DNA from: an uncultured delta proteobacterium
GTDB lineage: Bacteria > Myxococcota > Myxococcia > Myxococcales > Anaeromyxobacteraceae
Direction of reading: 5' to 3'
Length of the DNA stretch: 64,000 bases
Assembly: GCA_963766715.1 (NCBI GenBank)
Contig: CAVYBH010000008.1
Span: 480,001-544,000 of the forward strand
A program made the position numbers and the translations under genes. Positions within the stretch are counted from its first letter, which is position 1, and every line of letters begins with the position of its first letter. Positions 10,538-14,206 of this stretch are shown piece after piece. Below the pieces are notes generated by a model. That model was not told the DNA's origin. It did no database searches and was given only the letters and a program-made list of their open reading frames with translations.

Positions 10538-10999
10538 TCACTTATGGTACGGCTCTCCACGGAGGATGGTGAAGGCGCGGTAGACCTGCTCGACGAGGAC
10601 GAGCCGGGCCAGGCGGTGGGCGAGGGTGAGCCGGGAGAGGCACAGCGACTCGGCGGCGCGGGCCCGGATGGCGTCCCCGTGCCCGTCGGAGCCGCCGACG
10701 ACCAGCGTGACGTCCTTCGCTCCCTCCACCCAGGCCGCGACGCGGCGGGCGAACTCGGGACTGGTGGTCTCCTTGCCCCGCTCGTCGAGGAGCACCACCC
10801 GCTCGCCGTCCTCGATCCGGTCGAGGAGCGACGCGGCCTCCTCGTCCTTCGCGCGGGGCGTCCCGGCCGCCTTGCGCGCCTCCGGGACCTCCTCCACCGC
10901 GAACTTCACGTAGCGGGCGATTCGCTTCGCGTACTCCTCCACCGCCGGGGCGTAGAGCCCGGACCGGTCACGGCCCACCGAGAGGAGTCGGATGCGCAC
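10538..10999 (-). CDS. rlmH: 23S rRNA (pseudouridine1915-N3)-methyltransferase
   Basis: LDERGK, VGGSDG, HRLARLVLVEQVYRAFTILRGEPYHK. Confidence 0.95.
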   Translation of the reverse strand: MRIRLLSVGRDRSGLYAPAVEEYAKRIARYVKFAVEEVPEARKAAGTPRAKDEEAASLLDRIEDGERVVLLDERGKETTSPEFARRVAAWVEGAKDVTLVVGGSDGHGDAIRARAAESLCLSRLTLAHRLARLVLVEQVYRAFTILRGEPYHK

Positions 11000-11158
11000 C
11001 GCCGGAGTCTACGCGCCCCCGGCGTGCCTCGATGGGGCGAACCCTCAGCGGGAAATCTGGGGGCCATCCGCCCGGAAACAGGTCCCGTCCCGCAAGGGCG
11101 CCTTTTCAGGGCGCTTCGGGGAGGAATCGAATCGGGAGAGCCACTCAGGGGGTGAACC

Positions 11159-12496
11159 ATGGATCGAGTCCTTCGCGTCCTGGCCGTCGTGTCCCTCGTC
11201 GTGTCCGCCTGCGGCCCGGAGGTCCCGTCGACCGGGGCCGGGGCCGCGGGTTCCCTGGCGCCGGAGGCCGCCGCAGCTGCGAGCGAGGCCCTGCGTCTCC
11301 CGTCCCACCACCCGAGGCTGGAGGTGATGACCCGCAACCTATACCTGGGTGCGGAGATCACCGCAATCGTCGGGGCGCAGGACCCCGTCGCCGTCGCCAC
11401 CCAGATCTGGGGCGACGTCCAGCGTACCGACTTCCCGGCCCGCGCCGAGGTCCTCGCCGACGAGATCTTCTGGGCCCGCCCGGACGTCCTCGGGCTCCAG
11501 GAGGTGACCCTCTACCGATCGGGTCCTCCCGACGTCTGCCAGGGGCTCGCGACGCCCTCGTCCCCCGTGGCCCGCCACGTCGAGCTCGACTTCCTCTCCA
11601 TCCTCCAGAAGGAGCTGCACCGGCGCGGCCTCCACTACGACGTCGCCGCCCAGGTGACCACCATGGACGTCGAGTTGTGCATCTTCGACCCGTCCAGGAA
11701 GGAGGGCGTGGGTGACCTCCGGTACACCGACCGCGACGTGCTGCTCGTCCGCAAGGACGTCCGCTGGCGCGACCCGCCGCCGGCGCAGCCGGTCCCGGGA
11801 TTCGTCCCCGCGCCGATCCCGCCGGGGCCGGGCGATCGGAACGGAGGGGTCTACGCGGTCGCGGTCGAGACCGGCGTTCTGGAGCCGCCTCGCGCGCCGG
11901 CCACCGCGTTCTTCCGCATCGAAGGGGTGGCGGACCCTGTCTTCAGCTGGCGCGGGTGGACGGCGGTGGAGGTCGAGCGCGACGGGCACTGGGTCCGCGT
12001 CTTCGAGACCCATGTGGAGGATCGGCTGGACCTCACGAAGGAGGGGCTGGACTCCTGGTACTTCCAGGCCCTCCAGGACACGCAACTCCTGGCCCTCGTC
12101 GACGGCGCAAACGGGGCCAAGGCGCTTCCCACCGTGGTCCTCGGCGACTTCAACGTCTACCGGCAGGAGTCTGAGCCGGTCCCGGCGACGTTCGCCCTGC
12201 TCACGAGCGGCGTCCTGCGGGATGCGTGGACGGCCCTTCGTCCTCCGAACGACTGGGGCCCGACCTGGGGCTTCGATCCGGATCTCCGGGGCGGCGAGCT
12301 CTTCACCACCCTCGACCTGGTGCTCGCCACCGACGACCTGGAGCCGCTATTCACCTACCGTGTCGGGGTCCACGATCGGACCCGCGGAGGGCTCCACCCG
12401 TCCGACCACGCCGGCCTCGTCACCGGCCTTCCAGATCCACTGACGGTGCGCGGGCGCCCTCCCTGCCGGACCACGGCCTCGGCCAGGACCGGATAG
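11159..12496 (+). CDS. Endonuclease/exonuclease/phosphatase (EEP) family lipoprotein
   Basis: Lipobox VSAC; motifs MTRNLYLG, LGLQEV, VLGDFN, PSDHAG. The 3' end is uncertain (possibly ~12443) because it overlaps the convergent gene. Confidence 0.8.
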   Translation: MDRVLRVLAVVSLVVSACGPEVPSTGAGAAGSLAPEAAAAASEALRLPSHHPRLEVMTRNLYLGAEITAIVGAQDPVAVATQIWGDVQRTDFPARAEVLADEIFWARPDVLGLQEVTLYRSGPPDVCQGLATPSSPVARHVELDFLSILQKELHRRGLHYDVAAQVTTMDVELCIFDPSRKEGVGDLRYTDRDVLLVRKDVRWRDPPPAQPVPGFVPAPIPPGPGDRNGGVYAVAVETGVLEPPRAPATAFFRIEGVADPVFSWRGWTAVEVERDGHWVRVFETHVEDRLDLTKEGLDSWYFQALQDTQLLALVDGANGAKALPTVVLGDFNVYRQESEPVPATFALLTSGVLRDAWTALRPPNDWGPTWGFDPDLRGGELFTTLDLVLATDDLEPLFTYRVGVHDRTRGGLHPSDHAGLVTGLPDPLTVRGRPPCRTTASARTG

Positions 12497-13056
12497 GGCT
12501 GGGCGCCCACCACGCGCTCCGCCCCGACGTCGAAGGTGGGAATGCCCGTCACCCCGGCGGCGGCCGCCTCGCGCCCCATGGCCGCCACGCGGGCCAGGAC
12601 GCCGGGGGTCCGGCTCTCCCGGATCGCCACGTCGCCGTCGAGCCCCGCCGCCTTCGCGACCCCGGCCAGGACCCCGTCGTCCTCGATGTCGAGGCCGTTC
12701 CGCCAGTAGGCGTCCATGAGGCCGGTGCGGACCTCGTGCAGCCGGCCCTGGTCGCGCGCCCATTCGGCGAGCGCCAGCGCCTTGCGGGTGTTGGGCTTGT
12801 GAGCCGGGACGACCATGCCCACGACCCCCTGCGCCTTCGCGAAGTCGAGGAGGTAGGGGCGCATCTTCCGCACCCGCTCCGCCCCGAACATCTCCTCGAG
12901 CGGCATGCCGCCCACCGGGATGTCCGGGTGCAGCTCGAACCCGCGCCAGTCGAGCGTCACGTCGAACTCGGCTTGCAGCCTGACCAGGCTGCTCTGCTCC
13001 GCGACGAAGCAGAAGGGTCAGACGAAGTCGGACCAGATGCGGATCGGGATGTCCAT
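12355..13056 (-). CDS. DsbA/FrnE-like thioredoxin-fold selenoprotein (U13-P-F-C16)
   Basis: ATG 13056 reads [23 protein letters not shown] in frame with ORF 12355..12960 ([18 protein letters not shown]). The TGA is at 13020-13018. The 3' end is uncertain. Confidence 0.88.
12975..12992 (-). promoter_or_regulatory. Putative bacterial SECIS hairpin
   Basis: GCAGCCT-GGTC-AGGCTGC forms a perfect 7-bp stem with a G-starting loop about 32 nt 3' of the in-frame UGA. Confidence 0.7.
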
Positions 13057-13124
13057 GGCGCCGTCACCTAATCCCGGACATGATCCGGCGCATGATCGCA
13101 CCGCCGAAGACCGCCGCACCCACC

Positions 13125-13570
13125 ATGGAGGCCCGCAAGCGCGTGGCCCTCGTGGCCCACGACAACCGGAAGGAAGACCTGCTCGACTGGGCCCGGTTCA
13201 ACCAGGGCACGCTCTCGCGCCACCAGCTCTTCGGGACGGGGACGACCGGCAGGCTCATCCACGACCGGCTGGGGCTCGAGGTCCACCGGCTGCTCTCCGG
13301 GCCGCTCGGCGGCGACCAGCAGCTCGGCGCCCTCATCGCCGAGGGCAAGCTCGACGTGCTCATCTTCTTCTGGGACCCGCTCGAGCCGCAGCCCCACGAC
13401 ACCGACGTGAAGGCGCTGCTCCGGATCGCGGTGCTCTACAACATCCCCACGGCCTGCAACCGGGCCACCGCCGACTTCATCGTGTCGTCGCACCTCATGG
13501 CCGAGACCTACGGAGGGCCGCTCACGGCGAAGCCGGTCGCACGCTCCCCGTGCCGACCGAGCCGGGCTGA
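13125..13570 (+). CDS. mgsA: Methylglyoxal synthase
   Basis: [54 protein letters not shown]. The end is uncertain (ORF track runs to 13661). Confidence 0.93.
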
Positions 13571-14206
13571 CGGAGCCGGTCCACCCAGGCCATCCAGAGG
13601 ACGAGCAGCCACATCGAGATGGTTCCCCAGGCCACCGCCTGCTCGCCCGGGGGGAGCGTGAACTGGTTCCCGATGGCCATGACGGCGAGGAAGGCGACGA
13701 GGCTCCACAAGCGCGACGCTTCCCGAGCGGCTCCGGGGCCGGGTGCCGGTGGCGTAGAGCCAGACGCCGCCGGCGAAGATGGCCCCTTCCACGAGCACCG
13801 TCGCCGCCACCGAGTTCCAGAGGCCGAGGCCGAAGCGCTCCGGCGCCCAGGGGACGAGCTGGAGGTCGGGCCGGTGGGTGGCCCAGTCGAGGAACCAGTG
13901 GCTCGCCACGAGCAGCCCCACCACGATCGCGCCGCGCCGCTCGCCGCCGGCGGCCCGGTACAGGAGGCCGAAGGCGATCGCCCAGGCGATCGACATGAGC
14001 AGGCTGTGCGTCCACGGATAGTGGACGAAGGCCAGCGGGGTGTAGGCGGTGTCGCCCGGCGCGATCCGCACCTGCTCGATCCCGGCCAGCACGAGCACGG
14101 GCCAGACCAGGTCGACCCATTGGCTGGCCGCTCCCAGGGCGCCCAGGCTCGTTCGCGGGGCGAGCCGCTTGGCCGCGAAGGCCAGTCCGAAGTGACCGAG
14201 GAACAT
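13522..14206 (-). CDS. Membrane-bound metal-dependent hydrolase-like protein (frameshift near 13710)
   Basis: [35 protein letters not shown] and several TM helices. The C-terminus continues in ORF 13522..14394. Confidence 0.75.

Follow-up and report, generated by a model that had tools for sequence, protein, structure and literature searches.

Our analysis of a 64,000-nucleotide stretch of DNA from an uncultured delta proteobacterium of the family Anaeromyxobacteraceae (positions 480,001 to 544,000 of contig CAVYBH010000008.1; this entire stretch is referred to as 'the window') indicates that a DsbA/FrnE-like gene on its minus strand (13056-12420) very probably encodes a selenoprotein, in which the TGA at codon 13 is predicted, from sequence comparison, to be read as selenocysteine (Sec) with the aid of a conserved hairpin at 12992-12975. 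That this gene is recoded had been proposed from the letters of the window alone (hereafter the 'sequence-only reading'), and the proposal is now supported by (i) the pairing of Sec and Cys forms among homologues, (ii) the preservation of a putative selenocysteine insertion sequence (SECIS) at synonymous sites, and (iii) the presence of genes for Sec decoding in the same genome. The case is an ordinary one and not new, the gene being an ortholog of a selenoprotein that has already been published. In this respect, the earlier description of a 'hidden' selenoprotein is correct insofar as gene callers miss it, but both the family and an ortholog from Anaeromyxobacter had already been published as selenoproteins.

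Gene finders begin the shortened product of 201 residues at a GTG codon (12958-12960, minus strand; open reading frame 12355-12960), and a database relative, P0001, begins at the equivalent Val. An ATG (13054-13056) lies upstream in the same frame, as had been pointed out in the sequence-only reading, and each of the 18 loci with TGA described below has an in-frame Met 12 codons upstream of it. The ATG follows a Shine-Dalgarno-like AGGTGA (13064-13069) at a distance of 7 nt. Starting from ATG 13056, the minus-strand frame translates as [19 protein letters not shown]: the segment [12 protein letters not shown] precedes the TGA at 13020-13018, and the same frame resumes downstream with [15 protein letters not shown]. 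Directly after the TGA come the codons CCC TTC TGC, so that the motif reads SDFV-U-PFC. The predicted Sec13 (13018-13020) thus occupies the first position of a U-P-F-C redox motif and is aligned with Cys in both FrnE and the Cys-form orthologs, and the TGC at 13009-13011 encodes Cys16, the resolving cysteine of the UxxC motif and the sole Cys of the protein.

When the TGA is read through, the product matches the Pfam family PF01323 (DSBA) with an E-value of 1.3e-31 (110.3 bits; cut-off 25.6), and residues 5-195 are aligned with positions 2-190 of the 191 positions of the model. Since the read-through product covers the model from its second position onwards, the N-terminal piece dropped by gene callers belongs to the domain. 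Among solved structures, the best match is FrnE (5cnw, 5cp1; E-value 8e-13), residues 3-211 being aligned with residues 12-235 of FrnE, and position 13 falls on the first Cys of its CPWC motif; this alignment, together with the sequence itself, bears out the earlier statement that the TGA coincides with the first Cys of a CPxC motif. The protein therefore combines a DSBA domain with UxxC at the CxxC site (U13-P-F-C16), which are the two features that define form 1 of the DsbA-like selenoproteins. Because the active site starts as early as residue 13, no space is left for an export signal, and the position of the site hence suggests that the product is cytoplasmic.

The distribution of codons at position 13 among orthologs is as expected for a Sec/Cys site, and confirms the anticipated presence of either Cys or Sec in homologues. 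For a set of 41 related genomes (the window's own among them), from which the 20 best loci were taken, codon 13 is TGA in 18 loci (including that of the window) and TGC in two, and a wider scan of genome contigs yielded 80 loci with TGA in 55 and TGC or TGT in 25; the two sets overlap in genomes and are not independent of each other. Within the genus, nine of the 13 other genomes contain a strong ortholog (E < 1e-100), every one with TGA, and for the remaining four genomes, weak matches at the level of paralogs only were obtained in three and a fragment in one genome that is 70% complete. Sec forms are found in Myxococcota (Anaeromyxobacter terrae, A. oryzisoli, Archangium, Hyalangium), Gemmatimonadota, Binatota, Chloroflexota and Eiseniibacteriota, and Cys forms in Polyangia, in some metagenome-assembled genomes (MAGs) of Anaeromyxobacter, in some Chloroflexota and in Promethearchaeota loci. 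As a separate observation on cysteines in this family, residue 185 (12496-12504, minus strand) is Ala in the window's genus (VVGAQPY), and the Cys of VVGCQPY is kept in more distant Sec and Cys forms alike.

These orthologs also bear on an alternative, namely that the TGA is a true stop and that the real protein is the annotated one from GTG 12960, i.e., a DSBA domain devoid of CxxC. It is true that gene callers yield this shortened form both here and in relatives, but such a product would contain neither the first strand nor any of the active site (positions 2 to ~30 of the Pfam model). Moreover, all 18 loci with TGA show in-frame conservation of the 12 codons that lead up to it and of the PFCF that follows, the Cys-form orthologs read through the active site without interruption, and the hairpin downstream is held at synonymous sites (see below), so that we consider a true stop extremely unlikely. 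Reading the TGA as Trp or Gly was likewise rejected, because the codon is aligned with Cys and because TGA terminates this gene and its relatives.

The hairpin that constitutes the predicted SECIS (12975-12992, minus strand) was assigned on the basis of its fold, conservation and covariation. As had been noted from the sequence, a perfect GCAGCCT-GGTC-AGGCTGC hairpin is located about 32 nt downstream of the TGA: its arms (12992-12986 and 12981-12975) form a 7-bp stem, GCAGCCU/AGGCUGC, around the loop GGUC (12985-12982), the stem begins 25 nt and the loop 32 nt after the TGA, and the 18-mer alone folds at -11.1 kcal/mol. Since the hairpin taken alone is not significant in G+C-rich DNA, its weight derives from the comparison of orthologs. 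The 18 nucleotides are nearly invariant in myxobacterial and Binatota Sec forms, even where the identity of the proteins is only 48-58%. In an alignment of the window with 55 Sec forms (56 sequences; seven pairs and thus 392 cells), 86.2% of the cells hold standard pairs, compared with 23.0-47.4% when the partners are slid by 1-3 columns, and both sides have changed in four of the seven pairs (for example, from G-C to A-U in L049 and L091), with G-U occurring in nine sequences. None of 500 shuffles matched the observed pairing or covariation score, a figure which is inflated by the relatedness of the sequences. Furthermore, of the 47 Sec forms that encode Arg at the corresponding codon of the 3' arm (eight of the 55 have Leu), 43 use AGG. 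The share of AGG among the 1033 Arg codons in the remainder of these genes is 3.9%, and one of 14 Cys forms with Arg at the hairpin site uses it. As judged from these sequences, the choice of codon is the clearest sign of selection acting on the RNA, and synonymous sites in the Sec forms preserve the hairpin.

Outside of this group, the hairpin varies. Gemmatimonadota Sec forms have a version with 6 bp and a 6-nt loop, the Sec forms of Chloroflexota and Eiseniibacteriota have different hairpins which are closer to the UGA and contain GG in the loop, and most Cys forms lack the hairpin. In one Cys form from an Anaeromyxobacter sp. MAG (L060:1537-1599), the arms GCAGCC...GGCUGC are kept around an altered loop, UGCGCC, and may possibly represent the remnant of a SECIS after a change from Sec to Cys. 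A proximal hairpin (12993-13013, minus strand; 9 bp, loop UCG) was also considered and set aside: it is predicted in the window sequence only, the pairing differs among orthologs, and we claim no function for it.

For the 3' end of the gene, the sequence-only reading could not be sustained. The frame of the uncorrected assembly runs to 12355, which corresponds to 233 residues and to an overlap of 142 nt with the convergent gene. When compared with relatives, however, the assembly contains one surplus base at 12427, a 1-nt insertion which puts the final codons of both the dsbA-like gene and the convergent gene on the plus strand into a different frame. Contigs of four other metagenome runs were aligned to 12300-13200; these represent other samples, of which the best shares 0.40 of the sampled words (RNA runs share 0.04-0.15). 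Base 12427 is left out in contigs from X1 (depth 3.14/3.14), X2 (9.54/11.5) and X5 (7.47/7.47), and the contigs from X3 do not cover this position, so that three of the four runs are without the surplus base. In addition, the homologous TGA serves as the stop in L045 and L046, and P0001, which is 91% identical in the alignment, has the C-terminal end ...VSGPGSR. Because three of the four other runs lack base 12427 and the closest relatives end in ...VSGPGSR or similar, the end at 12355 is probably an artefact of the extra base, and the real stop is probably the in-frame TGA at 12422-12420, following ...VSGSGSR. The likely true coding sequence, based on the DSBA domain, the match to FrnE, the orthologs and the comparison of the tails, then comprises 12420-13056 on the minus strand and encodes 211 residues with the surplus base discounted. 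Two further observations concern frames of this kind. Without base 12427, the convergent endonuclease/exonuclease/phosphatase-like gene on the plus strand (11159-12496) would end with ...GFQIH at 12443 instead of 12496. Furthermore, an ortholog from another long-read-style MAG (L093:1537-1620) loses its frame soon after the hairpin, likely owing to another 1-nt indel.

A recoded TGA implied, according to the sequence-only reading, that selA, selB, selC and selD reside elsewhere in the genome. The gene for tRNA-Sec, selD, selA and selB are indeed all present, with the qualification that selA and selB are each split by one surplus base. The tRNA-Sec (RF01852, 82.5 bits; G000:C12:514471-514565) was called by ARAGORN as SeC with anticodon tca. 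The selD gene (TIGR00476, 362.9 bits, cut-off 125; G000:C9:55113-55955, minus strand) contains an in-frame TGA of its own, which falls on the known Sec site (HGAG*ACK, the asterisk being the TGA), and a full-length fdhA encoding the formate dehydrogenase alpha subunit (1485.6 bits; G000:C17:59438-62476, plus strand) likewise contains one in-frame TGA. The selA gene (G000:C15:349417-350803) is matched with 278.4 and 188.6 bits in two frames, with one surplus base near 350215. For selB (G000:C15:338055-340000), TIGR00475 is matched with 275.3 bits over positions 1-265, and the C-terminal wing domains are encoded in a different frame past one surplus base near 339000.

Several observations weigh against the assignment of Sec at codon 13. 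When considered in isolation, the hairpin is about what chance would provide: the 61-nt fold has a z-score of -1.49, with 18 of 200 shuffles folding as well; 126 perfect hairpins of 7 bp that have a G among the first two loop nucleotides occur in the window (57 on one strand and 69 on the other); and about 0.02 such hairpins are expected in an admissible register per TGA, with 464 TGA trinucleotides present on this strand. A scan of 12850-13150 against Rfam, with E-values up to 10, retrieved no SECIS family and gave only a chance match to a snoRNA (11.4 bits). Moreover, the evidence for a TGA in the source genome itself consists of the assembly and of conservation in relatives. Finally, selA and selB each contain one 1-nt frameshift while rpoB and rpoC (~8.1 kb) are unbroken in the same assembly, which makes a genuine loss of the pathway a rival explanation.

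Dependence on the assembly, which is known to contain errors elsewhere, would leave room for a base-calling or assembly substitution that turned TGC or TGT into TGA. Yet TGA is found in 17 of the 19 other related loci and in 55 of the 80 loci from independent assemblies, and the errors seen in the present assembly are 1-nt insertions and not substitutions. None of the 40 listed differences between the contigs of the other runs and 12300-13200 (124 more are unlisted) is located at 13018-13020, and the TGA is covered, although these contigs are from other samples and do not amount to confirmation at the level of reads. The probability of a substitution error is, in our view, practically negligible.

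A truly broken Sec pathway deserves somewhat more attention. If the frameshifts in selA (near G000:C15:350215) and selB (near C15:339000) were genuine, the TGA would now act as a stop, and the freshly stranded gene would yield either a 12-residue peptide or the 201-residue product; the intact rpoB and rpoC speak for this scenario. In contrast, selD, fdhA and the dsbA-like gene keep frames which are otherwise open and have their TGA at the known Sec position, the SECIS is intact, and selA is unbroken in a single frame in all five relatives that were checked. We infer that a completeness of 84.58% for a genome of 18 contigs fits scattered indel errors. Because the same kind of surplus base is found in the tail of the dsbA-like gene itself, where the contigs of three other runs lack it, the breaks in selA and selB are read as assembly errors, which they probably are. 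A genuine loss of the pathway is thus very unlikely, and Sec at codon 13 remains the preferred assignment.

Given Sec at codon 13, we propose that, with the UGA in the ribosomal A site, SelB together with Sec-tRNA(Sec) would bind the hairpin, whose GGUC loop starts 32 nt after this codon, and that Sec would be inserted at the UGA. In the cytoplasm, the product may then serve as a FrnE-type thiol-disulfide reductase or isomerase, with Sec13 as the presumed nucleophile that attacks disulfides of substrates and Cys16 expected to resolve the intermediate via a selenenylsulfide.

With regard to the evolution of the gene, a tree of 81 rows obtained with a quick method (with SH-aLRT support only and with the frameshifted long-branch row L093 included) groups the window gene exclusively with Sec forms, in a clade of 10 rows with a support of 100. 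On this quick tree, at least four changes between Sec and Cys are required, three of which are forced by well-supported branches, and the genes of Gemmatimonadota and Binatota branch from within the myxobacterial ones and have the same 18-nt hairpin or a variant that is one step away. It is conceivable, though we hold this with considerable doubt, that the gene and its SECIS pass between phyla as a unit, that is, as a small and horizontally portable 'UxxC-plus-hairpin' selenoprotein cassette, and that Sec has reverted to Cys at least once in Anaeromyxobacteraceae, with a vestige of the stem around a modified loop persisting in one instance.

The genomic neighbourhood was inspected as well. The order mgsA (divergent), dsbA-like gene, rlmH (window 10538-13661; loci L045-L055) is kept only in the window's own clade, and in the window and two relatives, a gene of the endonuclease/exonuclease/phosphatase family is located between the dsbA-like gene and rlmH. 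According to a crude motif scan, mgsA and rlmH are each found near the gene in 10 of the 80 loci, and we claim no functional link.

The main value of our finding lies in annotation. The sequence-only reading had held that annotation pipelines would truncate such a gene, and this is what is observed: the 73 listed database relatives with at least 73% identity all comprise 142-186 residues and cover 59-79% of the query, and each of the five that were aligned begins downstream of the TGA. As all 73 listed relatives are short and the five aligned ones start after the TGA, truncation by pipelines is the rule. In Anaeromyxobacteraceae, the gene is thus routinely called as a fragment of 142-186 residues without the active site, and inventories of redox proteins in MAGs of this family consequently undercount a selenoenzyme. 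The window gene adds one more entry to the selenoproteome of the genome, beside selD and fdhA; our knowledge of Sec decoding and of the DsbA-like selenoprotein family is left unchanged.

Comparison with known systems places the window protein as follows. A scan against NCBIfam gave a single match, NF041057 (Rcas_1661, a thioredoxin-like (seleno)lipoprotein family), which scored below threshold with 33.1 bits (cut-off 190) over residues 86-195. This family resembles the window protein in having a DsbA-related fold with Sec variants, but membership was rejected in view of the low score and the restriction of the match to residues 86-195; a lipoprotein signal is lacking as well. Closer is FrnE of Deinococcus radiodurans (DR_0659), which is described as a DsbA-family disulfide reductase/isomerase located in the cytoplasm, the C-terminal CxxxxC of which helps to regenerate the active site (PMC8945050). 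The two proteins share CP(W/F)C at the same place (with the predicted Sec of the window protein corresponding to a Cys in FrnE), a GxP cis-Pro-type motif and the absence of a signal peptide. In contrast, their identity is low, and the C-terminal CxxxxC that has been proposed to regenerate the site in FrnE is missing from the window protein, in which no Cys follows Cys16 in either reading of the tail. The protein hence lacks the C-terminal CxxxxC of the FrnE subfamily (cd03024), a motif that is present in many, though not all, members of this subfamily.

The hairpin agrees with what is known of bacterial SECIS elements. The criteria of the bSECISearch model, as given in a 2026 review (PMC13188914), are a loop of 3-9 nt, a stem of 4-16 bp, G in the first two loop positions, a distance of 16-37 nt from the UGA to the loop, and a minimum free energy of -7.5 kcal/mol or lower. 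With a 4-nt loop, 7 bp, GG, 32 nt and -11.1 kcal/mol, the window hairpin falls within every one of these limits, in keeping with its description as 'SECIS-like' in the sequence-only reading; binding by SelB is a prediction. What differs from a uniform consensus is that other lineages with the same protein family, i.e., Chloroflexota and Eiseniibacteriota, use hairpins at other registers.

Finally, the closest known system is the DsbA-like selenoprotein family itself. From Sargasso Sea data, Zhang, Fomenko and Gladyshev described a selenoprotein family named 'DsbA-like protein' (COG2761, UxxC) in 2005 (PMC1088965). Four bacterial genomes are credited with a member by Zhang et al. 2006 (PMC1794560), including that of Anaeromyxobacter dehalogenans, the sequence of which is printed with U (...FTDFVUPFCF...) in supplement file 4, and Table 1 of the 2026 review (PMC13188914) lists 'DsbA-like protein form 1, PF01323, UxxC'. 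The printed A. dehalogenans sequence agrees over its first 50 residues, but one, with our locus L043, which in turn is 51% identical to the window protein. The window gene shares with DsbA-like form 1 the same Pfam domain, a UxxC motif with the predicted Sec in first position, and a putative SECIS directly downstream. There is no difference in kind: the window gene represents a further ortholog, from an uncultured genus within the same bacterial family.

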